From positions 247 to 64,246 of the forward strand of contig JAZSNB010000118.1 in NCBI GenBank assembly GCA_045536195.1: a stretch of 64,000 nucleotides of DNA, read 5' to 3'. This DNA comes from Acutalibacteraceae bacterium (GTDB lineage Bacteria; Bacillota; Clostridia; Oscillospirales; Acutalibacteraceae). How positions within the stretch are numbered: position 1 is the first letter of the stretch; each line of letters starts with the position of its first letter. Under the pieces are notes generated by a model. It was not told where the DNA came from, did not search any database, and worked only from the letters and a program-made list of their open reading frames with translations. The position numbers and the translations under genes were made by a program. This document shows, in pieces, positions 10,325 through 61,512 of this stretch.

Positions 10325-10386
10325 TTTCTTTTCCTCTTGAATACGTTTTTTTAACGACAGAATAAAAGATAAAGCTTAAAATATCA

Positions 10387-11447: not shown

Positions 11448-12660
11448 TTTCATTGCTCCTTCCGGAAGAAAGCACCTGACACTCAAGAGTTCCGTCTGAC
11501 AGTGTAACTCCGATAGTGTCGCCGATATTGATTTTTTCCGTACTTTCTATTATTTCGCCATTAAGGCTTACTATGGAATAACCTCTCAGAAGCACACTGA
11601 GGGGATTAAGTTTTTCAAGGGATGTGACAAGAGAAGTGAAAGTATTTTTCTCTTTATATAAAACTCTCTGAGCCGATGCCTCAAGAGCACGGGAATACTT
11701 TTCTATAAGAATTTTGTCAGCTTCAAAAAATCTGCCGGGATCGGTGAAGGATCTTGCTTCAAGAATAAGCCCCAGCTTTCTTTTCTCTGCAGATACCATA
11801 GCACTCACAGCTCTGTACAATCTGTCGGTAAGAGATGCCAGATTCATAGTAAGATTCATAATATCGGGAACTGCAAGCTCTGCCGCTGCCGAAGGGGTGG
11901 GAGCACGCATATCGCTGACAAAATCGCATATGGTAAAATCAGTTTCGTGTCCCACTGCGGAAATAACCGGAACGGGGCATTCATATACGGCACGGGCAAG
12001 AAGCTCATCATTGAAGCACCATAAATCCTCGGCACTTCCGCCGCCTCTGCCGATGATTATCACATCAACACAGTTTTTCTCTCTGAATTCCTCCAGAGCT
12101 TCAATCATCTCGGCGGGAGCTGTCGGTCCCTGCACTGAAACACCGCAAAAAACAACACGGGCAAGGGGAAATCTTCTTCCCAGCACATTGAATATATCCT
12201 GCACGGCAGCGCCTGTGGGTGAGGTAATAACACCGACACTCAAAGGAAAAGCGGGAAGAGGCTTTTTATGAGCCTTATCAAAAAGACCCTCTTTTTCAAG
12301 CTTATTTTTCAGCTGATTGAAGGCAACACTGAGAGCTCCCGCTCCGTCGGGCATCATATCCTCGGCATATATCTGATATATACCGTCACGCTCAAAAACG
12401 GTGATTCTGCCCCTTATTATGACCTTCATTCCGTTTTCCGGCTTAAAGCGCAGCCTTGACGCCTGACGGGCAAACATTACTGCTTTTATTGCCGCCGAAT
12501 CGTCTTTAAGGGTAAAATACATATGGCCTGTTTTGTAATGATTGGAAAAATTGGAAATTTCCCCCGCAACAAAAACAGACTGCATTCCCATATCCTGATC
12601 AAATAAAGATTTTATATATCGGTTTATATCCGAAACCGAAAAAGTAGGTATATTCATCAT
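11440..12660 (-). CDS. xseA: Exodeoxyribonuclease VII large subunit
   Basis: MMNIPTFSVSDINRYIKSLFD... is an OB-fold N-terminus, and the catalytic region includes GRGGGSAEDLW. I trimmed the start to Met24 of the track ORF because the upstream gene ends at 12665. Confidence 0.9.
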   Translation of the reverse strand: MMNIPTFSVSDINRYIKSLFDQDMGMQSVFVAGEISNFSNHYKTGHMYFTLKDDSAAIKAVMFARQASRLRFKPENGMKVIIRGRITVFERDGIYQIYAEDMMPDGAGALSVAFNQLKNKLEKEGLFDKAHKKPLPAFPLSVGVITSPTGAAVQDIFNVLGRRFPLARVVFCGVSVQGPTAPAEMIEALEEFREKNCVDVIIIGRGGGSAEDLWCFNDELLARAVYECPVPVISAVGHETDFTICDFVSDMRAPTPSAAAELAVPDIMNLTMNLASLTDRLYRAVSAMVSAEKRKLGLILEARSFTDPGRFFEADKILIEKYSRALEASAQRVLYKEKNTFTSLVTSLEKLNPLSVLLRGYSIVSLNGEIIESTEKINIGDTIGVTLSDGTLECQVLSSGRSNENE

Positions 12661-12664
12661 AAGC

Positions 12665-13588
12665 TTAAACCTTTGATGCCAGCACAGCTGTGCCTGCTGC
12701 ATTATCCGAAGAAAAACCGGGTGCGGCAAAAACCGCGCCGAACTCCTCGGAAAAACGCTTTCTTATAAGTGTATTTGACATAACACCGCCCGAATACAAT
12801 AAGGGTAAATCGGGATATTTGTCCCTGATGCAAGCTGTCATTTCATAAAGAGCCTGAGAAATAAAGTCAATGCAGTATTTTGCAATATCCTCTTTCTTTT
12901 CATTATCGGCAAGCATCTTTTCACATTTATTCTGAAGCCCCGAAAGAGAGCAGCAGCCATCCTTCATATAAGGCTTTATTTTATATTTTCTGTCACTTTC
13001 AAGGCTGAGCTTATCAAGCATCATGCCTGCAGGGAAAGGAAGCCCCAGAAGCTTTCCGACACGGTCAATTGCCTGACCTGCCTTAAGGTCAAGAGAAAAG
13101 CTCAGCATCTCGGCAGAAAACACCTTTTTACTGTCGGGGGTTACCTTCACCGCCTCTGTTGTTCCGCCCGAAACATGAAAGGCAATAAACTCCTGAGTGA
13201 AAAGCTCTGTTTTCCCTGAGGAATATAGTGCGGCAGCAATATGACCTGCCTGATGGGAAAAATGAAACAAAGGAACACCGTTTACCGCGGCTATGCTTTC
13301 GGCAATTGCCTTTCCCGTATTAAAGCAGGGCATATAAGAGCCTTTCTCATCACGCGGGGATACGGAAACTCCGATGCGGTCGATTTTTTTGCTGCTTTCC
13401 GAAAACACATTTTTTATCATTTCAGGCAATAAAAGTATGTGCTGAAAAACAGCATCCGACTGTCTGAGTCCCAGCTCCCCTTCCTTTACGGGCAAAAGCT
13501 GTCTTGACTGAATTATTTCTCCGCTTTCACTGTCAAACAAAGCGGCGGAGGATGTGTAATTACTTGTATCTATTCCGAGGCACAGCAT
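12665..13588 (-). CDS. TsaD/Kae1-like ASKHA-fold protein (glycoprotease M22 family paralog)
   Basis: 307 aa. MLCLGIDTSNYTSSAALFD is an ASKHA phosphate-1 motif. HxxGH (FSHQAGHIAA) and FHVSGGTTE are also present. Its start overlaps the nusB stop. Confidence 0.6.
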   Translation of the reverse strand: MLCLGIDTSNYTSSAALFDSESGEIIQSRQLLPVKEGELGLRQSDAVFQHILLLPEMIKNVFSESSKKIDRIGVSVSPRDEKGSYMPCFNTGKAIAESIAAVNGVPLFHFSHQAGHIAAALYSSGKTELFTQEFIAFHVSGGTTEAVKVTPDSKKVFSAEMLSFSLDLKAGQAIDRVGKLLGLPFPAGMMLDKLSLESDRKYKIKPYMKDGCCSLSGLQNKCEKMLADNEKKEDIAKYCIDFISQALYEMTACIRDKYPDLPLLYSGGVMSNTLIRKRFSEEFGAVFAAPGFSSDNAAGTAVLASKV

Positions 13589-19189: not shown

Positions 19190-19234
19190 CATAAAAATCA
19201 AGACACAACCTGTAAATTTTACAGATTGTGTCTT
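19190..19234 (-). terminator. Rho-independent terminator ending the T-box(Ile) operon after ilvE
   Basis: Minus strand has AAGACACAA-tctgtaaaatttacagg-TTGTGTCTT followed by GATTTTTAT. Confidence 0.6.
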
Positions 19235-19255
19235 GGGTTCAAATGAGATTTTTGA

Positions 19256-20317
19256 TTATACTTTATATGTCCAGCCCTTTGTGTCTTCCAGTATGCCCCA
19301 TTGGATGCCTGTGAGGGTGTCATAGAGCTTTTGGGTAAGGGTGCCTATGCAGTTATTGTTGATGACATACTCTTTGCCGTTATGGACAAGCTTTCCTATA
19401 GGAGAAATAACAGCAGCAGTGCCGCAGCCGAAGGCTTCCTCAAGGGTGCCGTTTTCGAGAGCGGAGATTATTTCGTCAACGCTGATTCTTCTTTCCTCGA
19501 CAGGGATTCCCTGATCCTTCAGAAGCTCTATAACAGAACGTCTTGTGATGCCGGGAAGAACTGTTCCGATAAGATCGGGAGTGACTACTTTTCCGTCGAT
19601 TCTGAACATAACATTCATGGAACCGACCTCTTCAACATACTTTCTTTCCACTCCGTCAAGCCAGAGCACCTGAGAGAAGCCGAGCTTTTCTGCTCTCTCG
19701 CCTGCCCTTGTGCTTGCGGCATAGTTGCCTCCGCACTTGGCATAACCCGTACCGCCCTTTACGGCTCGCACGTCCTGAGTTTCAATCATTATGCTTACGG
19801 GATTTATTCCCTCTTTATAATAGCTGCCGCTGGGGGAAGCTATTATTATAAACGAAGCCTCGTTTATACCGTGAAGTCCGAGATTTGCTTCGGTAGCAAT
19901 CATAAACGGACGGATATAAAGTGAGGTTCCCTCTTTGTGAGGCACGAAATCCTCTTCAAGCTTCACAAACTCGTGAAGAGCCTGCAAGGCATCATTCTCA
20001 TCGAGAACAGGCAGACACAGTCTTTCGGCAGAATCGTTCATTCTTCTGATATTATCAAGAGGTCTGAACATCTGCACACTGCCGTCTTTGGTTCTGTATG
20101 CCTTAAGTCCTTCAAACACCTCTGCGCCGTAGTGAAGCACCACAGCAGCAGGATGCAAAGACAAAGGTCCGAAGGGGACAATTCTTGCATCGTGCCAACC
20201 CTCAGCCTTATTATAATCCATAATAAACATATGGTCGGTATAAGTAAGACCGAAGCCGAGGTTATTTTCATCCGGCTTTTCCGACGGATGGGGATTAAGA
20301 ACTGTTTTTATATTCAT
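19256..20317 (-). CDS. ilvE: Branched-chain amino acid aminotransferase
   Basis: 353 aa (type IV PLP fold): GLTYTDHMF, EGLKAYR and GTGYAKCGGNYAAS. Confidence 0.9.
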   Translation of the reverse strand: MNIKTVLNPHPSEKPDENNLGFGLTYTDHMFIMDYNKAEGWHDARIVPFGPLSLHPAAVVLHYGAEVFEGLKAYRTKDGSVQMFRPLDNIRRMNDSAERLCLPVLDENDALQALHEFVKLEEDFVPHKEGTSLYIRPFMIATEANLGLHGINEASFIIIASPSGSYYKEGINPVSIMIETQDVRAVKGGTGYAKCGGNYAASTRAGERAEKLGFSQVLWLDGVERKYVEEVGSMNVMFRIDGKVVTPDLIGTVLPGITRRSVIELLKDQGIPVEERRISVDEIISALENGTLEEAFGCGTAAVISPIGKLVHNGKEYVINNNCIGTLTQKLYDTLTGIQWGILEDTKGWTYKV

Positions 20318-20329
20318 TTAATCGCCTTC

Positions 20330-20863
20330 TTAAAGAGCAGCACCTGTATTAAGTGCTTCAAGATTATATTTCAGCATATCCTGATGGCGTGCGGAAATAA
20401 CCTTATTAAGGGCAGCCTCAAGATTTTCGTTTCCGATTCCTTCAACTTCCTTGATTACCTTACCGGTGATGATCATATTTGCAAGTGTACTGATATTTTT
20501 TTCATTTGCAAGACCTGATGCGGGAACATAATACACATCAACGTCTGTTCTTTCAACCTTTCTTCCGATAAGAGTTGAGTCAACGAAAATCTTACCGCCG
20601 GGGGTAACTGCATTTTCATACTTATCAAGTGAAGGAAGATTCATAGCGATAAGCACGTCGGGCTTATCGACGATGGGTGAACCGATGGGATCATCGCTTA
20701 AAATAACTGAGCAGTTTGCAGTACCGCCTCTCATTTCGGGACCGTAGGAAGGAAGCCAGCTTACCTGTTTGCCCTCAATAAGACCCTTGTATGCAAGGAA
20801 TTTACCTGCAAAAAGAATACCCTGTCCGCCGAAGCCGGCAAAAAGCATATTAACAGTAGCCAT
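20330..20863 (-). CDS. 2-oxoacid:ferredoxin oxidoreductase, gamma subunit
   Basis: 177 aa: [17 protein letters not shown]...SYGPEMRGG. It lies 12 nt upstream of ilvE. Confidence 0.85.
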
Positions 20864-21624
20864 TATTCTGCCTCCTTTTCTGATGTTATATCCTTATAAA
20901 CACCTAAAGGATAGTAGGGAATCATATTCTCCTCAAGCCAGGTGAGAGCCTTTTCGGGAGTCATACCCCAGTTTGTGGGACAGGTGGAAACAACCTCAAT
21001 AAGAGAGAAGCCTTTTCCGTCTATCTGATTCTGGAAAGCCTTTTTGATAGCCTTCTTTGCATTTCTTACATTCTTTACGTTATTAACGGCAACTCTTTCA
21101 AGATAAGCTGCACCATCAACATTCTGAAGCATTTCGCATACCTTTACGGGATAGCCGACAGTGGATACATCTCTGCCGTAGGGTGAGGTCTGAGTAACCT
21201 GACCGGGAAGAGTTGTGGGAGCCATCTGACCGCCTGTCATACCGTAAATTGCATTGTTTACGAAAATAACGGTGATATTTTCTCTTCTTGCTGCAGCGTG
21301 AACTGTTTCTGCAGTACCTATAGCTGCAAGGTCACCGTCGCCCTGATATGTAAATACGATATTATCGGGATCTGATCTTTTAACACCTGTTGCAACAGCG
21401 GGAGCTCTGCCGTGAGCAGCCTGAACAAAGTCACAGGTAAAATAATTATATGCCATAACGGAACAGCCTACGGGAGCAACACCGATAGTCTTTCCTTCAA
21501 TGCCCAATTCATCAATAACTTCGGCAACAAGACGGTGGATTATACCGTGAGTACAGCCGGGACAATAGTGAAGAACTGCATCTGTAAGGGATTTGGGTTT
21601 CTGAAATACTATAGCCATACTCAA
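20863..21624 (-). CDS. 2-oxoacid:ferredoxin oxidoreductase, beta (TPP-binding) subunit
   Basis: 253 aa: CPGCTHG, GDGDLAAIG and NNAIYGMTGGQ. Its start and stop overlap the neighbouring subunit genes. Confidence 0.9.
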   Translation of the reverse strand: MSMAIVFQKPKSLTDAVLHYCPGCTHGIIHRLVAEVIDELGIEGKTIGVAPVGCSVMAYNYFTCDFVQAAHGRAPAVATGVKRSDPDNIVFTYQGDGDLAAIGTAETVHAAARRENITVIFVNNAIYGMTGGQMAPTTLPGQVTQTSPYGRDVSTVGYPVKVCEMLQNVDGAAYLERVAVNNVKNVRNAKKAIKKAFQNQIDGKGFSLIEVVSTCPTNWGMTPEKALTWLEENMIPYYPLGVYKDITSEKEAE

Positions 21625-22691
21625 GCCTCCTTTTCGTTTACTTCAACAATTTTTTCAAGCACCTGTTCGGGGGTGGGAATCATACCGCCTGTACGGCAGC
21701 AAAGGTGAACTTCCTTTTTACATCTGATGCTGAGCTCAATATCCTCTATCATCTGACCCATATTCATTTCAACAGAGATAAATGCCTTGCACTTATCGGC
21801 TGCCTTATTGAGCACTGCCTTGGGGAAGGGCCAGAGAGTGATGGGACGGATAAGTCCTGCCTTTATTCCCTTTTCGCGGGCAACATTTATTGCATTTTTT
21901 GCAACACGGGATGTGATACCGAATGCAACAACGCAGATTTCGGCATCATCCATAAGATATTCCTCATACATAGCCTCTGTTTCTTCAATGAGCTTGTATT
22001 TTTCATATCTTTCAAAATTCTTCTTTTCAAGCTCTTCAGGCTGAAGGAAAAGAGAGTTTACAATATTATGCTTTCTTTCACCCTTCGTGCCGGTTACAGC
22101 CCAGGGCTTTTCAACATTATATGTGCTTTCGATATCAAGAGAAACAGGCTCCATCATCTGACCCATTGTACCGTCGGCAAGAATCATTGAAACCATTCTG
22201 TATTTATCTGCAAGCTCAAAGCCCTTTACCGTAAGGCTTGCCATTTCCTGAACGGAAGCGGGAGCAAGGACAATATTGTGGAAGTCGCCGTGGCTTCCGC
22301 CCTTTACTGTCTGCCAATAGTCAGACTGAGAAGGCTGAATACCGCCGAGACCGGGGCCGCCTCTCTGAACATTTACAATAAGTGCGGGAAGATCACAGCC
22401 TGCAAGGTATGAAATACCCTCACTCTTGAGTGAAATTCCGGGGGAGGAAGAAGAGGTCATAACTCTTTTTCCGGTGGATGCTACACCTATAACCATATTG
22501 ATAGCGGCAATTTCGCTTTCAGCCTGAAGGAATGTGCCGCCGATTTTAGGCATTTTTTTGGACATATATGCCGCAACCTCAGTCTGAGGAGTAATAGGAT
22601 ATCCGAAGTAATGACGGCAGCCTGCCTTAATAGCGGCTTCAGCTATAGCTTCGTTACCCTTCATAAGTACCATATCGCTCATTTTTTTCAC
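21621..22691 (-). CDS. 2-oxoacid:ferredoxin oxidoreductase, alpha subunit
   Basis: 356 aa: LMKGNEAIAEAAIKAGCRHYFGYPITPQTE. Confidence 0.9.
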   Translation of the reverse strand: MKKMSDMVLMKGNEAIAEAAIKAGCRHYFGYPITPQTEVAAYMSKKMPKIGGTFLQAESEIAAINMVIGVASTGKRVMTSSSSPGISLKSEGISYLAGCDLPALIVNVQRGGPGLGGIQPSQSDYWQTVKGGSHGDFHNIVLAPASVQEMASLTVKGFELADKYRMVSMILADGTMGQMMEPVSLDIESTYNVEKPWAVTGTKGERKHNIVNSLFLQPEELEKKNFERYEKYKLIEETEAMYEEYLMDDAEICVVAFGITSRVAKNAINVAREKGIKAGLIRPITLWPFPKAVLNKAADKCKAFISVEMNMGQMIEDIELSIRCKKEVHLCCRTGGMIPTPEQVLEKIVEVNEKEA

Positions 22692-22894
22692 CTCTCAACA
22701 GTAATAACGCAATCGGGACACATTGTAGCACAGAAAGCACAGGCAATACAGGAAGCCTGATCTGTGATTTCTGCAGGATGGTGTCCTTTGATATTAAGGC
22801 GTGTTTCAGATAATTTAATAATTCCCTTGGGACAGGCGCCCACACAAAGGGAGCAGCCCTTGCAAAGGTCTTCATTGAATGTAACTTTTGCCAT
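22688..22894 (-). CDS. 2-oxoacid:ferredoxin oxidoreductase, delta subunit (2x[4Fe-4S] ferredoxin)
   Basis: 68 aa with CKGCSLCVGACP and CIACAFCATMCP motifs. Confidence 0.9.
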   Translation of the reverse strand: MAKVTFNEDLCKGCSLCVGACPKGIIKLSETRLNIKGHHPAEITDQASCIACAFCATMCPDCVITVER

Positions 22895-22908: not shown

Positions 22909-23565
22909 TCAGATAATTTTTTTCTGAAGCTCCATCGGGAAAAGCTTTATATCCGTTGTATCAAGCTTTTCGCAAAGAGATTTTTCCGCAGATGTGAATT
23001 TAACGGGAATGCCCGCCAACATAGAAAGTTTATCACTTTCTTCGGCAGAGGTCAAGAGTGCAGAAATATCTGTCAGCTCACCCAGATTTGAATTATTTAT
23101 AATTGCAGTGAATTTCATCTGACAGGCCTCTTCAATTTCCCTCATAACCTCATAAGCCCCGGAGGCGTCCGGGGTAAGAGGTCTGTATTTATTGAAAACA
23201 AAAAGAAATTCGTAATCGTTTTCTTCTTTTATTTTATCGGCATATCTGCCCAGGGCATATGCTCCCCTGTCGTCACCGCCCAGGTCTACAATATAATAGC
23301 TTTCCTTGTCGTCAACTATACTGTACATTTCCTGAGGAATTGCGGGAATATCAACATTTGAGTTTGCATACTCGGATGAAATAAGCTTTATGCCTGCATT
23401 CGTAAGCCTGTCAAGTGAATCCTTTGTTCTGAAATAAGGATTTACTATATCGAGGTCAGCTATAACCACAGGCAGCCCTTGCTTTTTCATTTTCAATGCC
23501 AAATTAACGGCAATGTTTGTTTTTCCCGAGCCGTAATGCCCTGCAATAATTGTTATTCTTTTCAT
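22909..23565 (-). CDS. SIMIBI-class P-loop NTPase (MinD/ParA/CooC-like)
   Basis: 218 aa with Walker A IIAGHYGSGKTNIAVNLA and DLD(I)VNP. It sits 14 nt upstream of the OFOR delta subunit and 5 nt downstream of the acyl-CoA synthetase fusion. Confidence 0.6.
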   Translation of the reverse strand: MKRITIIAGHYGSGKTNIAVNLALKMKKQGLPVVIADLDIVNPYFRTKDSLDRLTNAGIKLISSEYANSNVDIPAIPQEMYSIVDDKESYYIVDLGGDDRGAYALGRYADKIKEENDYEFLFVFNKYRPLTPDASGAYEVMREIEEACQMKFTAIINNSNLGELTDISALLTSAEESDKLSMLAGIPVKFTSAEKSLCEKLDTTDIKLFPMELQKKII

Positions 23566-23570
23566 ATTTC

Positions 23571-25838
23571 TTACAGCTTGTTTCTCTGAATCTTTCCGCT
23601 TATTGTCTTGGGAAGAGATTCTCTGAATACAACGATTCTGGGATATTTATAAGGAGCAGTATGCTCTTTTACATACTTCTGAATTTCCTTCTTAAGCTCT
23701 TCAGTAGGCTCAGTGCCCTTTGTAAGCACGATGCTTGCTTTTACTACCTGACCTCTGAGTTCATCAGGCTCTGCAGAAACACCGCATTCAAGAACATAAG
23801 GAAGCTCCATGATAACATTTTCGATTTCAAAGGGTCCTATACGGTAACCGGAGGACTTGATAACATCATCAACTCTGCCCACATACCAGAAATGTCCGTC
23901 TTCATCCTTCCATGCAAGGTCACCTGTGTGATAATAACCGTCGTGCCATACCTCATCGGTCTTTTCCTGCTGATTGTAATAGCCGAGGAAAAGTCCGCAG
24001 GGAACCTTTTCGGATGTACGAACAACAATTTCACCGTTTTCACCAAGCTGAGCGGGAGTGCCGTCTGCTTTTATTATATCTATATCATACATGGGATTAG
24101 CCTTGCCCATAGAACCGGGCTTAGGAGTAGTACCCACAAGATTTGCAATGGTAAGAGTGGTTTCGGTCTGTCCGAAGCCTTCCATAAGCTGAAGTCCCGT
24201 TGCTGCCTCAAACTGCTTGAAAACCTCGGGATTGAGCGCTTCACCTGCTATTGTGGCATGCTTTATTGAAGAAAGATCATACTTTGAAAGATCCTGCTTG
24301 ATAAGCATTCTGTACATAGTGGGAGGTGCACAGAAGGTGGTTATCTTGTATTTTGCAAACATAGGCAGAATTACCGATGCATCAAAGCGGTCAAAGTCAT
24401 AAACAAATACTGAGCCTTCGCAAAGCCACTGTCCGTAGAGCTTGCCCCAGAGTGCCTTACCCCAGCCGGTATCTGAAATTGTGAAATGAAGTCCGTCTTT
24501 ATTTACCGTGTGCCAGTATTTTGCCGTAACAAAATGGGCAAGAGGATATGAGAAGCTGTGGGTTGCAATTTTGGGATATCCTGTTGTACCCGATGTGAAG
24601 AACATAAGCATAGGTTCTTTTCCGCAGGCAGTATCATCTTCTCTTCTGAAACGGCGGGAGAAAAGCTTATATTCATTATCAAAGTTGTGCCAGCCCTCTC
24701 TGTCCTCTCCAACAACAATCTTTGTGGTAAGAGTGGGACACTTATCGGCACATTCATCAACGTGAGCGGGTGTGTTATCATCGGAAGTACAGACAATTGC
24801 ACTGACACCTGCTGCATTGAAGCGGTATTCAAAATCGTGAGCCTGCAGCTGATGAGTAGCGGGAATTACTATAGCACCAAGTCTGTGGAGTGCAAGAATA
24901 GAGAACCAGAACTGATAGTGACGCTTCAGCACAAGCATAACCCTGTCACCCTTTTTGATTCCCAATGATCTGAAATAGTTTGCTGTCTGACAGGAATATT
25001 CCTTTATCTGCTGATAAGTAAACACTCTCTCTGTCATATCCCTTGCTATATGAATCATAGCAGTTTTGTCGGGAGATTTCTTTGCGATCTTATCTACAAC
25101 ATCAAAAGCAAAATTGAATTCATCAGTGTTTTCGAAACCAATATCAAGAAGCTCACCGCGTTCATTTTCCACAGGCTTTACAAACTTGTGGCACACAAGA
25201 GATTCCGATACTCTTGCCTCGGGCATTATTCTGTTTTTTGCAATATCCTCGGGAGCCTCATCGGAAGCAAGGATAAATGCAAGGAAAACACAGTCTCTGC
25301 CGTCAACAGCAATCATTCCGTGAGGAGTTGAGCTCTTATAATAAATACTGTCACCCTCGTGAAGTATTTCGGTATGGTCGCCTACCTTTACCATAAGAGT
25401 TCCGCTTATAACCATATCAAACTCCTGACCTGCGTGGGTAGTTGTATGAATGGGTTTGTTTTCAAGATCGGCAGAATATTCATATCTTACCCAGTAGGGG
25501 TCACCCAGCTTATCCTTGAACAGAGGAGCAAGATTCTGTATTTCAATACCGTTTTCCTTGGCTGTAGTCTGCCCCTCACCTTTTCTTGTTACGGTATAGG
25601 ATGTAAGCTTTGCGCTGTGACCTTCGAGAAGGTCAGTTATACCGATATCAAAAGCAAGTGCACACTTATGTATAAATGAGAAAGGAAGATCTTCCGTTCC
25701 GCCTTCATAAGCCATATATTGCTCGGGGGATACTTCGGTTTTTTCTGCCATTTGCTCAACGGTAAATTCGCTTATAGAGCGCATTTCCTTAATTCGGCGA
25801 GCCACCTCATAAAGTTTATTGTTTGTTGTCGTAGCCAC
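23571..25838 (-). CDS. Fusion protein: XRE-family HTH + cupin sensor domain + AMP-forming (medium-chain type) acyl-CoA synthetase
   Basis: 755 aa with a GTG start 8 nt after AAAGGAGG. Residues about 8-75 form an HTH_XRE (RRIKEMRSISEFTVEQMAEKTEVSPEQYMAYEGG). Residues about 120-200 form a cupin (HAGQEFDMVISG...GDSIYYKSSTPHGM). The rest carries FFTSGTTGYPK, YHTGDLAWKDEDGHFWYVGRVDDVIKSSGYRIGPFEIE and PKTISGKIQR. Confidence 0.85.
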   Translation of the reverse strand: MATTTNNKLYEVARRIKEMRSISEFTVEQMAEKTEVSPEQYMAYEGGTEDLPFSFIHKCALAFDIGITDLLEGHSAKLTSYTVTRKGEGQTTAKENGIEIQNLAPLFKDKLGDPYWVRYEYSADLENKPIHTTTHAGQEFDMVISGTLMVKVGDHTEILHEGDSIYYKSSTPHGMIAVDGRDCVFLAFILASDEAPEDIAKNRIMPEARVSESLVCHKFVKPVENERGELLDIGFENTDEFNFAFDVVDKIAKKSPDKTAMIHIARDMTERVFTYQQIKEYSCQTANYFRSLGIKKGDRVMLVLKRHYQFWFSILALHRLGAIVIPATHQLQAHDFEYRFNAAGVSAIVCTSDDNTPAHVDECADKCPTLTTKIVVGEDREGWHNFDNEYKLFSRRFRREDDTACGKEPMLMFFTSGTTGYPKIATHSFSYPLAHFVTAKYWHTVNKDGLHFTISDTGWGKALWGKLYGQWLCEGSVFVYDFDRFDASVILPMFAKYKITTFCAPPTMYRMLIKQDLSKYDLSSIKHATIAGEALNPEVFKQFEAATGLQLMEGFGQTETTLTIANLVGTTPKPGSMGKANPMYDIDIIKADGTPAQLGENGEIVVRTSEKVPCGLFLGYYNQQEKTDEVWHDGYYHTGDLAWKDEDGHFWYVGRVDDVIKSSGYRIGPFEIENVIMELPYVLECGVSAEPDELRGQVVKASIVLTKGTEPTEELKKEIQKYVKEHTAPYKYPRIVVFRESLPKTISGKIQRNKL

Positions 25839-25860
25839 AGTAAAAACCTCCTTTTACAAA

Positions 25861-26127
25861 AAAATAAATCCGTCCCAAAGTAAAAAACTTTGAGACGGAA
25901 ACATAATACTTTTTCCGCGGTACCACTCAAATTGCGAAAACTATTGTTTTCACCGCTTCAGAGTCCGACAACTCCTTTGCACTAACGGGGCATTCCCGGG
26001 AAACACTACTGTTATTTCGCATTTCCGGCTCGGAAGCGATAGCCTGTTGAAAGAATCGTCTCACGGCTTGCACCAACCGCCGTTTCTCTGCATCGGATAT
26101 CTTTCAGGCCTCTTCGTCACAGCCATT
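25861..26127 (-). promoter_or_regulatory. T-box riboswitch leader, probable Ile (AUC) specifier
   Basis: On the minus strand, Stem I has a GA/K-turn (GGCUGUGACGAAG ... CUUCCGAGCC), an AGAGA bay and a GGUUGGUGCAA distal loop. A CCGUUA F-box-like element and a stem III follow. The T-box sequence is AAUUUGAGUGGUACCGCGG (25915-25933). The terminator is UCCGUCUCAAAG-uuuuuuac-CUUUGGGACGGA followed by a U-run. The antiterminator alternative UUUGAG/CUCAAA plus CGGAAA/UUUCCG is also present. Confidence 0.85.
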
Positions 26128-26133
26128 GACTGA

Positions 26134-26162
26134 ATAATATCACAACACTATTTATTTGTCAA
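26134..26162 (-). promoter_or_regulatory. Sigma-A type promoter for the T-box(Ile) operon
   Basis: Minus strand has TTGACA, a 17-nt spacer, then TATTAT. It sits just upstream of T-box Stem I. Confidence 0.6.
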
Positions 26163-26199
26163 CATCATAAAACTAATAAAATCAATTAAAAAAATTAAT

Positions 26200-32336: not shown

Positions 32337-35300
32337 TTACATTAATCTGCCGAATATCTGAGTGATATTGGAAATAATTCTGTAGAACCAGTTAACAAGT
32401 CTCTGCCAGAAGGAAAGCTGTACTTCTTCTACTGCAGAATCGGTAGCACACTTTGCATAGCAGGTATAGGGTGCGCCGTCGATATTTGTTACAGTACAGA
32501 TAATAAACTTTCCGCTGTCGGCATCTGTGAGAGTGTAAGCATCTGTGCCTGAAGCAACCTTAACACCGTTTCTGGGATCATCCTCGGGATCATCAATTCT
32601 GTACCATTCAAACCAGAGATAATCATATGCGCCCTGAGGAATGTCATTTGTGATAACATAAAGTGACTTTCCGCTCTGAGCTGTACCTGTGAATGAAATA
32701 GCAATATTGAGCTCTGAGGGTTCAACAGTAAGAGTGATATACTGTGTGATTGTTGCATAGTTCTGAGTGTTGAAGGGAGTGAATACTACCTTATAAACAT
32801 CAGCGAAGGTGCCTACTTCAAGAGGAGTAGTTGTGGGATTCTCCATTGAGAATGTACCGAATTCTGTTCCGACATAGCTTGAAGTATACTTAACTGTTGA
32901 AAGCTTCTGGCCGTAGCCTACGGTACCTGTAAGAGGAAGTACAACGCCGGGAGTCTTTGCCTTGAGGATTTCAACATTAAGAGTGGGATTAAGAAGTCTC
33001 AGTTCATAGTTGCCTGACTTTGCACCTGCAAGTGCGGGCATTGTATACTTAACACTCTTGATGCCGGCATTTTCGTCAGCAACAGTACCCTGGATGGGGA
33101 ATGTGCCTTCAAGGAATACATCATTTGCACCGTCGGAGCCATAGAGGTTTGTAATAGCAGAGAAGCTTACGTCAACATTAAGATTGCCGGGAGCATATTC
33201 TCTGTCCTTTGCAACAGCTTCAACATAAGCAGGACGCTTATTGACTGTTACCATACCGTTTTTGTAGATAAAGTCGTAGTTGTCGCTTTCAAAAGCACCT
33301 GTAAGAACGACATCATACTGACCGACATCACTGCCTGCCTGATATGAGCAGTTCATAAGAACATAACCGTCAACATCATTCTTAATGGTATCAGCACCTG
33401 TAAGACCTGATACATTGTAGTAGTATGTGGGTTCAATATCACCGTATGTAACAGTGAAGTTAGCAGCTGTAATTGTTACAACTGTCTTAAGAATTTCAAC
33501 CTCTACTTCATATTCAACGGTTGCGTAGTTGTTTGTATCATCGGGAGTGTAAATTGCCTTGTAGGTATGTACACCGGCACCGGGAACTGTATTTGCAACA
33601 TCTGCTGCCCATGCCCAACGGCTGTCACCGAGGGAGATAGCATTAAGAGGTCTTGCACTGTCGTAGTAAAGAACATCTGTCATGGGAATGGGATAGAAGG
33701 GAGTTGCCTTAAGAATCTGAACCTTAAGACCGTCAAGGTTTGTAAGCTCAAGCTCGTAGTTACCGGCCTTTGAGCCTGTAAGAACAGCACCTGATACAGT
33801 TACATTTCTGAGACCTGCTCTGTAGTTATCAATAGCACCCTGAACAAGAGATTCATCAACATATACAAAGCCGTCATCGCCTTCTGCAAGTGTGTTGCCG
33901 ACGGGTTCAAAGCTGAGGTCTACATAGTAGTTGTTCTCTTCATATTCTCTTTCAACGGGAACAACCTTAACCTTAAGAGTTCTCTTTGTAATGTCAGCCT
34001 TTGAATCGTTTGACATTGAAACAAGAAGCTCATAGTTATCGGCAGCTGAGCCCTTGAGCACAGCATTATTTATAAATACATCAATATCAGTGCCGACATT
34101 TGTTGATGCGAAGTAGTAAATTGCAGCTTCGCTGTCAAAAGCAACATCATCCGAAGTTCCGTCTGCAAGAGTCATAGCACCGTATTCTTCAGTTACTGTG
34201 GCTTCTGCTGCACCTGTGCCGTCATATACCTTGTCGAGAACCTCAACATTTACATAATAGGGAGCAGGTGTGATAACAAGTGTACCGATCTTGTAGTTTG
34301 CTACGGGAGAGTAAACAACCTGACCGTCTACTGTTGTAAGACCGTTTACTGTCTGAAGCTTTGTGAAATCAACATCGGGAGTATCGATATCGATAGTAAC
34401 TGTGTAATAACCTACTTCTGTGGGGGCGGAGACAGAGCCGTTGTACTTAACGGTAACATTACCGATAGCGGCACTTGAAAGGCTCTTGTCGTCTCTGTGG
34501 AATTCTACATAGTGAGGCTGAGCATTATATGTATATTCTGCATCGCCGCCGTATGTGGAAAGACCTGCAAGATCGAAATAATTATCATATGCATCTGCAC
34601 CGAGAATAGTTTCAACCTTTGTAAGAGAAGGCGCAATAACAGTTGTTACATAAACAACCTCACCTGTGTAAGGAGCATTTGCAACAGCCTTTACTGTGAG
34701 CTTCTGGTTCTTGTGAGCTTCGGCAAGAACGATTTCTGCACCTGTGCCTACCTGAACATTTGAAGCATTGTACCATGTAAGAGTGTATACACCGATTTCA
34801 TCGGGATCAAGACCTGTTACATCAACAGTAAGCTTTTCACCTACCATGGGAATACCTGCAACAGCGAGTGTACCGCTGACGGGCTTCTTATTAACTGTAA
34901 GAGCAACATAAAGACCTGATACTGAATTGTAGTTTACTGTATCTGCGGGAACGAATGTTGCAGTGTAAATTGTATAAGCCTCTGCGCGGTATGCGGGAGT
35001 TGTTGAAGCTGCGTTATAAACGTATTTACCGGTTACGCCGTTTTCAACGTTGCCGCCTGCAAATACTGCATCGCCGAGAGTCTGACCGTGAACGATTGTT
35101 GCAGTGGGAAGAGTAAGAACTCTGGGAGTTGCCTTGATAACAGTAATAACACCGTGCTGAACTGTTACTGTGTAGTTATTGAATGTAGCATCGGTAACAT
35201 CAACAGTAACAGGATAACCGTCTTTATTTACGGGTGAGCCCTTTTCATAGGTTGTGTCAATCTTTATCTTACCTGAAGAAACAACCTCATCTGCTGTTTC

Positions 35301-38300
35301 ATTTCTCTTTGCACCTACAACAGAGAATGCATTTTCAATATCAGCAGGAATTGCACTGCCGTATTCAAGTGTGATGTCATCAGCCTTGATAACAAGCTGT
35401 GCCTTTGTAACCTTGAGGCTACCTGCAGTTGTAGCTACTTCATAGTTGGGAGATGTGATGAAATTGGGAGTAGCCTTGATATAGTATGTACCTACCTGAT
35501 AGTTGTCGATATATCTGAAGTCGGTTGAATACTCAAATGTGGGAGCAGCGCCGCTTGCAGTAACATCTTCAATTGTATCAGTACCGACAAGAAGAGCTTC
35601 GTCATAAGAAACCTTTACAGTAGATGCAGAGGGAACAAAGTTGTCACCGTAGATTGCGGTTGCATCCTCAACCTTGAAGGTGATAAGTCTGGGTTTAACA
35701 GTGATAACACCGTCTGAAGTTGTAAATGTATAGTTACCGTTTACATCAACAAAGTTGGGAGCAGAAATTTCAACTGCATAGCCGCCCTCAACAACAGGTG
35801 AGCCCTTTACATAATCTGTATGAGGAGTGATATTACCTGATGTGGTAACAGCATCAATATTAAACGTAGGATCAAGGTCAGCCTTATATGTATAAGCTGT
35901 GATATTGGGGATATTGTCACCGTAGGAAACTGAGCCGGCATAGGATATAACAACGGGAGTTGCCTTAACCTTAATTGCAATATCAACTACCTTGACTTCA
36001 TAGTTATTAAGATCCTGAGGAACATACTGTGCCTTGTAGGTTGCAACTTTTACTGTGGGATTAATTGTTGCATCCACCCACTGCCATGAGCCTTCTACAG
36101 AGGATGTGTAGCCTGTGAGCTCAACATCCTTAAGGGTTCTTGCATTCTGATAATACATTTCCTCAACAACGGGAGTTGTAACTGTGGGAACACCCTTAAG
36201 AATGGTTACAAGAAGTGTTGCGCCTGACTTATATATAACATCAGCTACATAGTAGTTCTTTCCCGCACCGCCTGTTACAAGGTCTGCAACAGACTGCTTT
36301 GTAATACCGCTTACTTCTCTTATACCTGCAGTATTGTCACTGAGTCCACCTGAAGCAGCAAGAATACGGACGTCGTCAACACCGAATTTACCGTCTGTGA
36401 TTGTGAAGGTAACTTCTACATTATAATTATCGGGAGCATATGCTCTGTCTTTTGCCACAGCCTCAACCTTTATAGGTCTCTGAGAAACTCTGAGAACACC
36501 TTCAGCGTTGGCATCCTGACCGTAAGCATATACATATTCATAGTTTGAAAGAAGCTCGGGAACATCTGTGAAGGTTGCACGGATGTAGTAAGAGCCTACT
36601 GCAACCTCACCGGCAACATAAGGAACATAGCTGTCGCCGTTGAGAATCATATAGCTGAGTGCATTTGCTATTGTCTGCTTTGCAGCATCTCCTGTGTCGT
36701 TACCTACAAGACCTGTGATGGTAACGGAATAAGGAGTATCAAATGTATCATTACCGTATACTACTGCGGCAGCATTGGGTCTGATGGTAAGAGGAGCCTT
36801 CTTTACACTGAACTCAACATTGAACTGGGTTGCCTTATAGTTCTTTGCTGTGGGAGCAGCGGAGTATGTGGGAGTCCATGTGATTGAAACGATCTGGTTG
36901 TCGCCCACAGTCTTGAAGGATGAGCCGTCAGCAGCATTTGTAAAGGAGAATACACCTGTGAGATTTGATTCGTTTACAATTCCCTTTGCCGAATAGGTTG
37001 AAAGCTGAAGTATTTCATTGAGCTTCTGACCGTAGGTAAGTGAAACGGTTTCGGGAAGTGTGCCTCTGAGAATGGAAGCCTGCTCGATTATAAGAGTAAA
37101 GGTATATTCAAGAGCGTGTCTGTTCTTATTGTGCTTGGGGTCTTTGTTATAGGTTGTGCTTTCGGCAATATTGAGGGTTACCTCATAAGTACCTGCATTT
37201 ACGGGAAGCTGACCGGATTCACTTGTTTCCTTCACACCTGCTTCGTTTGTACCGGTGTAGGAATAAGTAACACTAATAAGGTCGCTGTCTGTGAAGTCAA
37301 GGTTATAGTCCCTTGAATAATCGGTCTGCATAATTGCATCAATAACCTGAAGACCTATATCGGTTGCCTTTATGGGAGAGCCTGTATAGGTGGTCGTGGC
37401 AACATTTGATGTGCCTACCTTTGCCTTGATGTCATTGGCATCAAGTCTACCGTAGTCAACAAAGATATAAATGGGGCCGTTGGTTGCGGGAGCTGCACCG
37501 TCTGCGGCACCCTGTGAACCGAAGGTTTTGAAAACAGTACCCTTGTTATTTAAAGATGTAACATTGTAATCGGATAACCATGCATCGGATATTGCATAAG
37601 TAATATTTACAAGTCCCCAATAGTAGCTGTTGCAGGATTCTGCACCTGAGATATACTTGATAGAAGCATCGGGAGACTTTGTAAGTATGCTCTGACCTGT
37701 TACACCTGAAAGATTCACAAGTGAATTTACAACATCAGTGCCGTCTGTAAGAGGCATAAATGAGTAACCTACATTGCCTTCATCACCGACGATAGATGTG
37801 TCGATAGCAGTCTTGTTCTTATCAACCCAATATCTGTAAACAACGTGAACACGGTTTTTGCCTTCAAGAGCACCGCGGACAATAGATGTGGGAATACCGT
37901 TTACGTTGGTAACAATACTTCCGGCATAGCTGTTATTAGCTTCGTCAAGGAAGTTATTTGCAACAACAGCAGCAGAAGGTGTTACAATAACATATTCGGT
38001 GTAGGACATCATGTAATTTACAATATCATGGGCTGATTTTATCATTTCAGAAGAAGAAACAACAGAGCCCTTACGATATGTAACATTAACATCAGAATTC
38101 ATGCAATTCTCTGCAGGAGTTGTTATCGTTACGTCGGGAAGAACAGGGAGATTTCCTGAAACGGTATAAATACCGCCGCCGAAAAGAAACTGCTGTCCGT
38201 TACCGTCAGAGGTTACCGCATCAATACTGTTTATATTTGCATCATGTGTAATATTACCGCCGGTGATATTAATACTGCCGCTGGTTGCAATGCCGTATGC

Positions 38301-39236
38301 TATTGAGGTAATTCGGGCTCTACCGTCACTCGCATTACCGCCATAAGTATTACGGTGATGATTACCCTGTGATGTAACCGTCATTGTGGTTGCGGATGAA
38401 ACATTAACATTACCGCCGTAAACACCGTAAGCTACAGCAGCAGTGGAGGTTCTTTCACCGTCATCGCACTGGGAGGTCATTGAGCCCTGTCCCTGAGCAT
38501 AAACGGTAATTTCTGCAGCATTGATGCTGCAGGTAGCTGCAGCGGATGTGTTATAAACTGCAGTTGCTGCAGATGAAACCTGTGAAGACTCTTCTGTTAT
38601 AAGCGAACCACCAACACTTATTTCATAATGAAGAGTGGAATTGACATTTATTTTAACACCCTTATTGATTGTAAGGTTGCCTTCATTTCTGATAGCCTCA
38701 AGGTTAGCATAGCTGAGCTCTTTTTTGCCTGCACCCATTCCGGTTCTGACATTAACAATGCTTATAGAAGCTGTATTGGAAGTGGCATTCACGGATGAGC
38801 CGCTGTAGATATTAAGGTTACCCTTGTTGTGGATACCGTAAACATAGGGCAGCTGCCATGCACCGTCAGAGGAACGGTCAAAAACAACAGTACCGCCGTT
38901 CATAAAGAAGTTGACCGTCAGTCCCTGCGGAATAACAATACCTGTAATTCCGGAGCCGAAGGTAGCTGTTGATGTATTTGTCAAAACAACAGATGCCGAG
39001 GGTCCTGACAATTTCATATTAACGACAGTGCCCGGGGCAAAAGAACTGAGCTTGTTGTTTATATCAGCAACAGTTGCATTAGCCGGTATAACATATTCTT
39101 CAGCTGCAGAAGCAACAGGAAGAATATCTGCCGATAAGGTGGGGAGAACAGAAAGGGACATAACAACAGCAAGAAGCATAACAATCACTTTTGCTGTCAC
39201 TTTTGCAAATCTGCTCTGTGATGAATTATTTTTCAC
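32337..39236 (-). CDS. Giant (2299 aa) secreted adhesin-like protein: signal peptide, beta-helix-like N-terminal region, many YDG/MBG-type repeats, amphipathic aromatic C-terminal tail
   Basis: It is an uninterrupted 6.9 kb ORF. The signal peptide is ...VIVMLLAVVMSLSVLPTLSA. Modules of the form KVYDGT / KDR(A/E)YAP and YGD..P...G.Y....NY....G.L.V.K recur. I see no LPXTG, SLH or dockerin. The protein ends in FWQRLVNWFYRIISNITQIFGRLM. Confidence 0.85.
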   Translation of the reverse strand: MKNNSSQSRFAKVTAKVIVMLLAVVMSLSVLPTLSADILPVASAAEEYVIPANATVADINNKLSSFAPGTVVNMKLSGPSASVVLTNTSTATFGSGITGIVIPQGLTVNFFMNGGTVVFDRSSDGAWQLPYVYGIHNKGNLNIYSGSSVNATSNTASISIVNVRTGMGAGKKELSYANLEAIRNEGNLTINKGVKINVNSTLHYEISVGGSLITEESSQVSSAATAVYNTSAAATCSINAAEITVYAQGQGSMTSQCDDGERTSTAAVAYGVYGGNVNVSSATTMTVTSQGNHHRNTYGGNASDGRARITSIAYGIATSGSINITGGNITHDANINSIDAVTSDGNGQQFLFGGGIYTVSGNLPVLPDVTITTPAENCMNSDVNVTYRKGSVVSSSEMIKSAHDIVNYMMSYTEYVIVTPSAAVVANNFLDEANNSYAGSIVTNVNGIPTSIVRGALEGKNRVHVVYRYWVDKNKTAIDTSIVGDEGNVGYSFMPLTDGTDVVNSLVNLSGVTGQSILTKSPDASIKYISGAESCNSYYWGLVNITYAISDAWLSDYNVTSLNNKGTVFKTFGSQGAADGAAPATNGPIYIFVDYGRLDANDIKAKVGTSNVATTTYTGSPIKATDIGLQVIDAIMQTDYSRDYNLDFTDSDLISVTYSYTGTNEAGVKETSESGQLPVNAGTYEVTLNIAESTTYNKDPKHNKNRHALEYTFTLIIEQASILRGTLPETVSLTYGQKLNEILQLSTYSAKGIVNESNLTGVFSFTNAADGSSFKTVGDNQIVSITWTPTYSAAPTAKNYKATQFNVEFSVKKAPLTIRPNAAAVVYGNDTFDTPYSVTITGLVGNDTGDAAKQTIANALSYMILNGDSYVPYVAGEVAVGSYYIRATFTDVPELLSNYEYVYAYGQDANAEGVLRVSQRPIKVEAVAKDRAYAPDNYNVEVTFTITDGKFGVDDVRILAASGGLSDNTAGIREVSGITKQSVADLVTGGAGKNYYVADVIYKSGATLLVTILKGVPTVTTPVVEEMYYQNARTLKDVELTGYTSSVEGSWQWVDATINPTVKVATYKAQYVPQDLNNYEVKVVDIAIKVKATPVVISYAGSVSYGDNIPNITAYTYKADLDPTFNIDAVTTSGNITPHTDYVKGSPVVEGGYAVEISAPNFVDVNGNYTFTTSDGVITVKPRLITFKVEDATAIYGDNFVPSASTVKVSYDEALLVGTDTIEDVTASGAAPTFEYSTDFRYIDNYQVGTYYIKATPNFITSPNYEVATTAGSLKVTKAQLVIKADDITLEYGSAIPADIENAFSVVGAKRNETADEVVSSGKIKIDTTYEKGSPVNKDGYPVTVDVTDATFNNYTVTVQHGVITVIKATPRVLTLPTATIVHGQTLGDAVFAGGNVENGVTGKYVYNAASTTPAYRAEAYTIYTATFVPADTVNYNSVSGLYVALTVNKKPVSGTLAVAGIPMVGEKLTVDVTGLDPDEIGVYTLTWYNASNVQVGTGAEIVLAEAHKNQKLTVKAVANAPYTGEVVYVTTVIAPSLTKVETILGADAYDNYFDLAGLSTYGGDAEYTYNAQPHYVEFHRDDKSLSSAAIGNVTVKYNGSVSAPTEVGYYTVTIDIDTPDVDFTKLQTVNGLTTVDGQVVYSPVANYKIGTLVITPAPYYVNVEVLDKVYDGTGAAEATVTEEYGAMTLADGTSDDVAFDSEAAIYYFASTNVGTDIDVFINNAVLKGSAADNYELLVSMSNDSKADITKRTLKVKVVPVEREYEENNYYVDLSFEPVGNTLAEGDDGFVYVDESLVQGAIDNYRAGLRNVTVSGAVLTGSKAGNYELELTNLDGLKVQILKATPFYPIPMTDVLYYDSARPLNAISLGDSRWAWAADVANTVPGAGVHTYKAIYTPDDTNNYATVEYEVEVEILKTVVTITAANFTVTYGDIEPTYYYNVSGLTGADTIKNDVDGYVLMNCSYQAGSDVGQYDVVLTGAFESDNYDFIYKNGMVTVNKRPAYVEAVAKDREYAPGNLNVDVSFSAITNLYGSDGANDVFLEGTFPIQGTVADENAGIKSVKYTMPALAGAKSGNYELRLLNPTLNVEILKAKTPGVVLPLTGTVGYGQKLSTVKYTSSYVGTEFGTFSMENPTTTPLEVGTFADVYKVVFTPFNTQNYATITQYITLTVEPSELNIAISFTGTAQSGKSLYVITNDIPQGAYDYLWFEWYRIDDPEDDPRNGVKVASGTDAYTLTDADSGKFIICTVTNIDGAPYTCYAKCATDSAVEEVQLSFWQRLVNWFYRIISNITQIFGRLM

Positions 39237-61433: not shown

Positions 61434-61512
61434 ACGGTATGTCCGTCTTAGACACACAAGTCCCATAAATATTATGGACTTGTTTTGGAAAAATAAAACT
61501 TATATATTTTTC

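Follow-up and report, generated by a model that had tools for sequence, protein, structure and literature searches.

We identified a T-box leader RNA and the operon that it precedes in a 64,000-nt stretch of DNA from an Acutalibacteraceae bacterium (GenBank assembly GCA_045536195.1, contig JAZSNB010000118.1). This whole stretch is referred to here as the window, and all coordinates are counted from its first nucleotide. The leader (25888 to 26129, minus strand) stands in front of genes for an AMP-forming acyl coenzyme A (acyl-CoA) ligase, a 2-oxoacid:ferredoxin oxidoreductase (OFOR), and the branched-chain aminotransferase IlvE. On our reading, the leader is a T-box attenuator responsive to tRNA-Ile(GAU), and isoleucine starvation would induce an operon that salvages isoleucine from 2-methylbutyrate; we assign a rough probability of 0.78 to this reading as a whole. 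Judged from the sequence, an Ile-specific T-box that attenuates transcription is very probable, and salvage of isoleucine from 2-methylbutyrate is a likely function of the operon. What was computed here is the family to which the RNA belongs, the elements within it, the register of its specifier, its conservation, the limits of the operon, and the assignment of the proteins to families.

The leader matched the T-box covariance model of Rfam (RF00230) over the full length of the model (positions 1 to 219 of 219) with a score of 90.6 bits (E = 2.6e-20 in a local scan; 2e-18 when the whole 64-kb window was searched). A first-pass annotation, made by a model from the letters of this DNA, had read a T-box with all of its canonical elements on the minus strand. 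The covariance search (E of about 1e-20) and the retention of the leader in orthologs bear out that claim, with every listed element at the position where it had been placed. By architecture and statistics, the leader belongs to the known T-box class as a new member. Its elements are as follows.

26134 to 26162, minus strand: sigma-70-type promoter, TTGACA-17-TG-n-TATTAT (consensus scan, 11/12 matches, TG extension).
26028 to 26123, minus strand: Stem I, with K-turn, minimal specifier loop, AG bay, and distal loop (covariance-model alignment).
26123 to 26112 and 26036 to 26028, minus strand: K-turn, GC-UGUGAC-GAAG ... CUUC-CGA-GC, aligned to the K-turn columns of the model.
26089 to 26085, minus strand: AG bay, AGAGA, placed at high posterior probability in the conserved AGAGA columns.
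Within Stem I, minus strand: distal loop, GGUUGGUG, matched to the conserved GgUUGGUG columns, likewise at high posterior probability.
26038 to 26040, minus strand: predicted specifier codon, AUC (Ile); the next base, at 26037, is the purine G (covariance-model columns).
26025 to 26000, minus strand: Stem II with a GAA/AGUA S-turn (model alignment).
25983 to 26025, minus strand: Stem II to F-box, comprising the predicted Stem IIA/B pseudoknot region and the F-box CCGUUA at 25988 to 25983 (model columns).
Minus strand: Stem III hairpin, aligned to the model.
25933 to 25915, minus strand: T-box sequence, AAUUUGAGUGGUACCGCGG, within the antiterminator helix.
25922 to 25925, minus strand: T-box bulge UGGU (sequence and alignment), predicted to pair with the 3'-ACCA of uncharged tRNA.
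Minus strand: 3' strand of the antiterminator, UUUCCGUCUCAAAG, which is also the 5' strand of the terminator (model alignment).
25859 to 25899, minus strand: intrinsic terminator including the T-run, with a 13-bp stem at 25899 to 25869 (terminator scan).

The 3' end of the promoter is 5 nt upstream of the first base of the T-box match. Because the antiterminator and the terminator share a strand, the two structures are mutually exclusive, and the terminator hairpin forms in the minimum-free-energy fold of the leader. Stem I folded alone was not significantly stable (z = 0.18); thermodynamics alone does not identify the structure of the leader.

We examined the conservation of the leader in a sample obtained by scanning one genome per species with the 755-amino-acid (aa) ligase that is encoded directly downstream of it. 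Relatives of this ligase are abundant in uncultured Clostridia (at least 588 matching stretches, among which some species give two paralogs), and the best 80 of these stretches were analyzed. The ligases of the 80 loci were 67 to 95% identical to that of the window. Nearly all of the loci were from metagenome-assembled genomes (MAGs) of herbivore and human guts (Acutalibacteraceae, Oscillospiraceae, Christensenellaceae, and similar groups), mostly of ruminants or other herbivores. In 78 of the 80 loci, a T-box core was located 80 to 150 nt upstream of the ligase gene; one of the remaining two (L051) has a leader with a one-base variant, and the other (L062) ends at a contig edge. The leader was present upstream of the orthologous gene in 79 of the 79 informative loci. 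Among 141 related leaders, the UGGUACCGCG core was identical in nearly all, with few single-base variants, and the bulge was UGGU in every one (141/141). This invariance agrees with an earlier suggestion that the bulge of the window leader fits an A73 discriminator. A73 is the discriminator of bacterial tRNA-Ile, tRNA-Val, and tRNA-Leu; the A73 and GAU assignments made here rest on general knowledge.

The assignment of AUC (Ile) as the specifier is strongly supported by the sequence comparisons. In the covariance-model alignment, AUCG (26040 to 26037) filled the final four unpaired columns of the specifier loop on its 3' side, abutting the closing helix CUUC. The specifier directly precedes the conserved purine with which the loop ends on its 3' side (PMC7583486), and the T-box database TBDB ranks bulge positions 2 to 4 from the 3' end first (PMC7778990); each of these rules gives AUC followed by the purine G in the window leader. 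The first-pass annotation had called AUC at 26038 to 26040 a probable Ile specifier and had proposed a covariance-model alignment to fix its register. That alignment set AUC-G, and no other triplet, in the specifier and purine columns. AUC was found in all 74 of the orthologous leaders that could be parsed, and in L051 as well. The bases around the codon varied: the preceding base was C in 44, U in 29, and G in 1 of the 74 orthologs, and the following base was A in 45, C in 23, and G in 6.

The helices that flank the specifier loop also fix the register. The 4-bp helix above the loop was 93.8% paired in register, versus 27 to 61% when the partner strand was slid (73 distinct sequences), and it had GC/CG/AU/UA compensatory alternatives at three positions. 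The 4-bp helix below the loop occurred as GAAG/CUUC, GAGG/CCUC, GAUA/UAUC, GGAA/UUCC, GAAA/UUUC, GGGG/CCCC, and GGAG/CUCC; its 100% pairing is partly circular, as the parser required pairing, and its evidence is the variety of pair types only. Between the two helices, the specifier loop is a tight 2 x 5 internal loop throughout the family (5'-A-C / 3'-Y-AUC-N; in the window, 5'-A(G)/3'-U-AUC-G). The small loop without an S-turn, which had been noted in the window sequence, is thus a family-wide trait. An Ile codon also fits the biology of the downstream genes related to branched-chain amino acids (BCAAs), i.e., those for IlvE, VorB, and a ligase resembling MacsMa.

The strongest evidence for the AUC register comes from sequence comparison with paralogous leaders. 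Many of the orthologous loci hold further T-boxes, each with its own promoter. In the specifier register, the leaders of a second ligase gene (ligase 2) carried GUA (45) or GUC (3), i.e., Val codons, and those of a LeuA-like gene carried CUC (14) or CUG (3), i.e., Leu codons in 17 of 17 orthologous leaders. Two ligase 2 entries were artifacts (L027 was mistyped; L069 was misparsed and reads GUA-A by eye). In a locus with three leaders (L010), RF00230 set AUC-A (86.1 bits), GUA-G (69.4 bits), and CUC-G (122.8 bits) in the same specifier columns, in which it also set the CUC-G of a second T-box of the window (described below). Codons that are synonymous within a class and specify different amino acids between classes, all of them BCAAs, indicate the specifier position, given that nothing else is expected to show this pattern.

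Seven genes follow the leader. They are tightly spaced or overlapping and extend to a strong terminator.

23571 to 25838, minus strand: gene 1, HTH_19, Cupin_2, and AMP-forming acyl-CoA ligase domains, 755 aa (Pfam); GTG start at 25838 after the ribosome-binding site AAAGGAGG.
22909 to 23565, minus strand: gene 2, CbiA/MinD/ParA-type P-loop NTPase, 218 aa (Pfam CbiA, 30 bits against a cut-off of 25.4).
22688 to 22894, minus strand: gene 3, OFOR delta, ferredoxin-like, 68 aa (two CxxCxxCxxxCP-type [4Fe-4S] motifs in the translation).
21621 to 22691, minus strand: gene 4, OFOR alpha (Pfam POR_N/PFOR_II; NCBIfam VorB, NF005507, 546 bits, above the cut-off of 399).
20863 to 21624, minus strand: gene 5, OFOR beta (Pfam TPP_enzyme_C).
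20330 to 20863, minus strand: gene 6, OFOR gamma (Pfam POR).
19256 to 20317, minus strand: gene 7, IlvE, class IV branched-chain aminotransferase, 353 aa (PRK13357, 477 against 307; TIGR01123, 401 against 250; both above their cut-offs).
19199 to 19235, minus strand: intrinsic terminator at the operon end, 17-bp stem.

The ligase core of gene 1 aligned end to end with PDB 3ETC (MacsMa) at 641 bits, with 53% identity over 515 aa. MacsMa prefers 2-methylbutyrate (PMC10455477), and MbcS of Staphylococcus aureus activates 2-methylbutyrate and isobutyrate (PMC10026030). On the basis of these relatives, the product of gene 1 is a predicted 2-methylbutyrate-CoA ligase. Its N-terminal ~235 aa (25134 to 25838, minus strand) form an HTH_19 + Cupin_2 module, which is fused to the ligase in essentially all relatives and has the architecture of a small-molecule-sensing transcription factor; this module had no sequence relative among solved structures. 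It could add a second, DNA-level regulatory layer to the Ile operon.

Genes 3 to 6 are predicted from their sequences to encode a four-subunit VorB-type (VOR) 2-oxoacid:ferredoxin oxidoreductase. The alpha subunit exceeded its family cut-off, and the beta, gamma, and delta subunits, each of which scored under its own equivalog cut-off (for gene 3, all of the OorD/PorD-type matches in NCBIfam), are all encoded adjacent to alpha. A 73-aa open reading frame (ORF) at 22654 to 22875 was rejected as a gene in favor of the overlapping 68-aa ORF that encodes delta (22688 to 22894). Sequence searches found no NCBIfam or PDB relative of the P-loop protein encoded by gene 2. The position of this gene between the ligase and OFOR delta genes is conserved across the orthologous loci, and its product is possibly an OFOR maturation or cluster-insertion factor.

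Across the loci, the conserved gene order is ligase, an optional Val cassette, P-loop protein, OFOR delta-alpha-beta-gamma, and IlvE. The ilvE gene is sometimes absent from the operon end: in the closest relatives of the window (L001 and L060), in contrast to the window and L002, an M20 peptidase gene directly follows OFOR gamma. The aminotransferase step is not always encoded in cis.

We propose the following mechanism. Transcription of the leader would start at the promoter at 26162 to 26134. Stem I would then offer AUC (26040 to 26038) to the GAU anticodon of tRNA-Ile from its unusually small loop, which lacks the Stem I S-turn, while the platform formed by the AG bay and the distal loop would stack on the tRNA elbow. 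The ACCA-3' end of an uncharged tRNA would pair with UGGU (25925 to 25922), stabilizing the antiterminator and allowing read-through. With a charged tRNA, the 13-bp terminator (25899 to 25869) would form, and transcription would stop before gene 1. Read-through would yield one seven-gene unit ending at 19235 to 19199. The AMP-forming ligase would turn exogenous 2-methylbutyrate into 2-methylbutyryl-CoA, the VOR-type oxidoreductase would reductively carboxylate this ester to 2-oxo-3-methylvalerate, and IlvE would transaminate 2-oxo-3-methylvalerate to isoleucine. The bound tRNA, the ligase substrate, and the reductive direction of the OFOR are what we infer in this scheme.

We favor the salvage route because it joins a signal of tRNA-Ile shortage, an ATP-spending ligase that is close to enzymes preferring 2-methylbutyrate, a reversible VOR, and IlvE. 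Induction by uncharged tRNA follows the logic of biosynthesis and not of catabolism. AMP-forming ligases convert an acid to its CoA ester in an essentially irreversible manner, and OFORs are reversible given reduced ferredoxin. For rumen organisms, e.g., Methanobrevibacter ruminantium (PMC2812497), synthesis of isoleucine by the reductive carboxylation of 2-methylbutyrate is accepted.

Two other explanations concern the leader itself. If the specifier were in a neighboring register, i.e., GCU (Ala), CUA (Leu), or UCG (Ser), another tRNA would be sensed. The small loop without the S-turn landmark leaves the register ambiguous by eye in a single sequence, the first-pass annotation had held that GCU and CUA could not be fully excluded, and UCN encodes Ser in every ortholog (UCA, UCC, or UCG). 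The comparative data now exclude the first two: GCU falls in the covarying helix above the loop and is CCC, CCU, or ACC in orthologs, while CUA is replaced by CCA in 44 of 74 orthologs, which changes the amino acid. A Ser reading requires three isoacceptors and a UGGC bulge; the tRNA-Ser(CGA) gene in a related MAG (locus L021) ends in CCTCTCC-G-CCA and has G73, but the bulges are UGGU in 141/141 leaders. Furthermore, the covariance model sets AUC in the specifier columns, and only the AUC register has synonymous Val or Leu codons in the paralogous leaders. We rejected GCU, CUA, and UCN on the basis of the covarying helix, the CCA in most orthologs, and the invariant UGGU; a shifted register is barely credible. 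A decaying, nonfunctional T-box relic, with an operon that is constitutive or run by the HTH-cupin domain alone, would account for the score below the Rfam threshold (90.6 bits versus 93) and the missing Stem I S-turn, and the fused HTH_19-Cupin_2 module could itself regulate. However, all of the functional elements are intact (the UGGUACCGCG core is perfect, and the terminator that competes with the antiterminator is strong), and the lack of the S-turn is a shared, stable trait of the family. The leader is kept in 79/79 informative species, with compensatory helix changes and an invariant codon; such retention, compensation, and invariance of AUC point to purifying selection and not to decay. 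Given this conservation and covariation, we rejected the relic explanation, which is extremely improbable.

Two further explanations accept the T-box and assign another role to the operon. In one, the ligase scavenges 2-methylbutyrate for primers of anteiso fatty acids of the membrane, thereby sparing isoleucine. MbcS of S. aureus, which belongs to the nearest named family and is the best NCBIfam match, has exactly this primer role (PMC10026030), and a signal of Ile starvation would make sense as the cue for sparing isoleucine. However, primer supply requires only the ligase and leaves unexplained its strict cotranscription and conserved synteny with a four-subunit VOR-type OFOR and IlvE; run oxidatively, these enzymes would deplete isoleucine just when its shortage induces them. 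Separate Val and Leu cassettes that feed the same OFOR and IlvE also fit amino acid synthesis better. We consider the membrane-lipid role unlikely as an explanation of the operon, and it is compatible with isoleucine synthesis. The other explanation is a catabolic operon, i.e., an oxidative, Stickland-type branch from BCAA through 2-oxoacid and acyl-CoA to branched acid, with the T-box incidental or responding to another signal. In Clostridia that ferment amino acids, IlvE and VOR together form the oxidative route by which BCAAs become branched short-chain acids, and the reversibility of OFORs would allow it here. T-boxes, however, are on when the cognate tRNA is uncharged, and the degradation of isoleucine would then be self-defeating. 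The AMP-forming ligase spends ATP toward the CoA ester, whereas ATP conservation would use an ADP-forming synthetase or a Ptb/Buk pair, and the Ile, Val, and Leu cassettes of T-box and ligase match the three precursor acids of an anabolic route. We rejected the catabolic role, which conflicts with the starvation signal and the ligase type and is very unlikely.

Several observations weigh against the reading of the leader and operon as an Ile-responsive salvage system. The leader falls 2.4 bits short of the RF00230 gathering score of 93, mainly because the Stem I S-turn columns (AGUA and GAA) are deleted in the alignment; its statistical significance is overwhelming despite this shortfall. The Stem I S-turn (AGUA/GAA, loop E), a conserved element typical of T-boxes with a long Stem I, is absent above the specifier. 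The "functionally critical" purine after the codon, which is G in the window, is replaced by C in 23 of the 74 orthologous Ile leaders (31%). A search of the window and of 60 of the loci with ARAGORN detected no tRNA-Ile gene. Regarding the enzymes, the best NCBIfam family for gene 1 was MbcS (NF047394), at 432 bits against an equivalog cut-off of 850; the ligase substrate is a prediction only, because this score is far below the cut-off and the homologs are ~53% identical. VOR enzymes typically take several branched 2-oxoacids and can run oxidatively. Where the Ile and Val cassettes occur in tandem, it is the Val T-box that precedes the OFOR and IlvE genes, and Ile starvation alone would therefore induce only ligase 1 in these species, barring leakiness of the Val terminator or sufficient basal expression. 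Finally, our reading is computational; we found no experiment on this leader RNA or its enzymes, and the canonical threonine-dependent pathway to isoleucine may also exist in the genome.

We compared the leader with canonical Firmicute long-Stem-I T-boxes (Bacillus subtilis tyrS, ileS, and ilv-leu). The architecture from the K-turn to the terminator is the same, as is the logic, in which uncharged tRNA induces genes for amino acid supply, and the specifier ends in C, following the "C-rule" of known T-boxes (PMC7778990). The window leader differs from the canonical T-boxes in having no S-turn above the specifier and a loop of only 2 x 5 nt, and its family differs in having C in place of the postcodon purine in 31% of the orthologous Ile leaders. 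According to a review, the Stem I S-turn tilts away from the bulky modified base at position 37 of the tRNA. The target differs as well: an acyl-CoA ligase/OFOR/IlvE operon in place of an aminoacyl-tRNA synthetase, the ilv/leu pathway, or a transporter. The first-pass annotation had called this target atypical, which accords with the literature that we searched: it holds no description of a T-box in front of, or tied to, an OFOR or acyl-CoA ligase operon, with an earlier mention in Vitreschak et al. 2008 (RNA 14:717) being possible. The T-box regulon surveys consulted mention no oxidoreductase or acyl-CoA ligase targets. The rationale of 2-methylbutyrate salvage, the Leu T-box located 4 kb upstream, and the recognition of gene 1 as an AMP-forming ligase with an HTH-cupin module are points beyond that annotation.

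Regarding the enzymes, the window ligase shares the AMP-forming ligase fold with MacsMa (Methanosarcina acetivorans, 3ETC) and MbcS (S. aureus), both of which lack its extra N-terminal HTH_19 + Cupin_2 module of ~235 aa. MbcS feeds fatty acid primers, whereas the window ligase is encoded in one transcription unit with OFOR and IlvE. The chemistry predicted for the operon is the same as that of the Allison/Robinson pathway and the anabolic VOR of methanogens, and the gut/rumen habitat is the same. In the literature searched, that pathway is known by physiology and labeling, and neither bacterial genes nor an operon with a dedicated regulator were defined for BCAA synthesis from branched acids; in the window, the three predicted steps are encoded in one riboswitch-controlled unit. 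Unlike the described route, the Ile unit also has sister Val and Leu cassettes.

The Val cassette is absent from the window and present in ~50 loci, in which it is inserted between ligase 1 and the P-loop/OFOR/IlvE genes (e.g., L010 at 10300 to 12942, L004, L012 to L015, and L019 to L025). It consists of its own promoter, a Val T-box, and a paralogous gene for an HTH-cupin-ligase; in L010, the leader (10300 to 10650) precedes an ORF of 762 aa whose product shares 70% identity with ligase 1. The Val leaders score only about 69 bits against RF00230. T-boxes in tandem or in multiple copies, and specifier switching after duplication, are on record for transporter and synthetase genes (e.g., Wels et al. 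2008, PMC2494555). As in those cases, the leaders seem to have been duplicated with their genes and their specifiers reassigned (AUC/GUA/CUC), the rest remaining similar. Unlike in those cases, the duplication unit pairs a T-box with a substrate-specific ligase. The copies feed into a single OFOR and IlvE set, and the cassettes are ordered differently from one species to another. The regulon and its modular Ile/Val/Leu layout appear to be undescribed.

The Leu counterpart is present in the window, ~4 kb upstream of the Ile leader.

30192 to 30434, minus strand: second T-box leader, Leu (RF00230, 90.0 bits, just under the gathering score; UGGU bulge).
30344 to 30342, minus strand: predicted specifier of the second T-box, CUC (Leu) (model alignment).
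About 30200 to 30170, minus strand: terminator of the second T-box.
28698 to 30101, minus strand: LeuA-like gene, divergent, ATG at 30101 (266 bits against a cut-off of 532).
26200 to 28698, minus strand: fusion of a xylose-isomerase-like TIM barrel (AP_endonuc_2) and an acyl-CoA ligase, 832 aa (Pfam/NCBIfam).

This Leu T-box and its genes belong to the same cluster of BCAA cassettes; the activation of isovalerate is one possibility for the role of the Leu cassette. No terminator was predicted in the gap (window positions 26163 to 26200) that separates the Ile promoter from the stop codon at 26200, where the gene for the Leu-controlled ligase ends. Leu operon transcripts probably continue into the Ile leader and stop at the Ile terminator, which would then also close the upstream Leu operon and couple both operons under joint starvation.

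Taken jointly, these cassettes suggest a tentative wider reading, to which we give somewhat less than an even chance: a widespread system of gut and rumen Oscillospirales and Christensenellales, in which Ile/AUC, Val/GUA, and Leu/CUC cassettes of T-box and ligase share one OFOR and IlvE, with the HTH-cupin module as a second gate. If so, the shared OFOR and IlvE would rebuild BCAAs from 2-methylbutyrate, isobutyrate, and isovalerate, and the specifier codons would be a built-in key to the substrate of each ligase paralog. The HTH-cupin module may then sense the precursor acid, and expression would require both starvation and the precursor. The long Stem I would decode a tRNA that probably carries t6A37 without an S-turn or a stacking purine.

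Since the 1960s, rumen and gut anaerobes, the cellulolytic ones among them, have been known to require branched short-chain acids ("isoacids"), which they carboxylate to BCAAs, and isoacids are used as feed additives. A tRNA-Ile switch in front of ligase, OFOR, and IlvE genes provides a specific candidate gene set for this route, and T-box control is a regulatory argument for the anabolic direction of the pathway. Through their specifiers (Ile, Val, or Leu), the sister cassettes would predict a substrate for each ligase paralog. The interest thus lies in the genes, the direction, and the substrate predictions for a long-known, genetically ill-defined pathway, and the RNA mechanism is not new. 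Regarding the RNA, the leader family is a natural experiment, i.e., a long Stem I without an S-turn and often without a postcodon purine. The Ile and Val leaders are under the Rfam gathering score and are therefore missed by routine annotation based on gathering thresholds. In the window, both T-boxes were found only with E-value thresholds, and a scan at gathering thresholds detected only the glmS ribozyme.

The other genes of the window are ordinary housekeeping genes (RecN, Dxs, XseA, Mfd, ComEC, EF-G, and GlmS). Two long ORFs were also present on the minus strand: a 1146-aa ORF (970 to 4410) had no Pfam match, and a 2299-aa ORF (32337 to 39236), in which only MBG_2 and YDG repeat domains were recognized, probably encodes a cell-surface protein. 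The remaining RNA element is as follows.

61308 to 61442, minus strand: glmS ribozyme/riboswitch, RF00234 (65.4 bits against a gathering score of 37), canonical.

The glmS gene (59435 to 61258; SIS and GATase domains) is located directly downstream of this element, an ordinary and expected arrangement.

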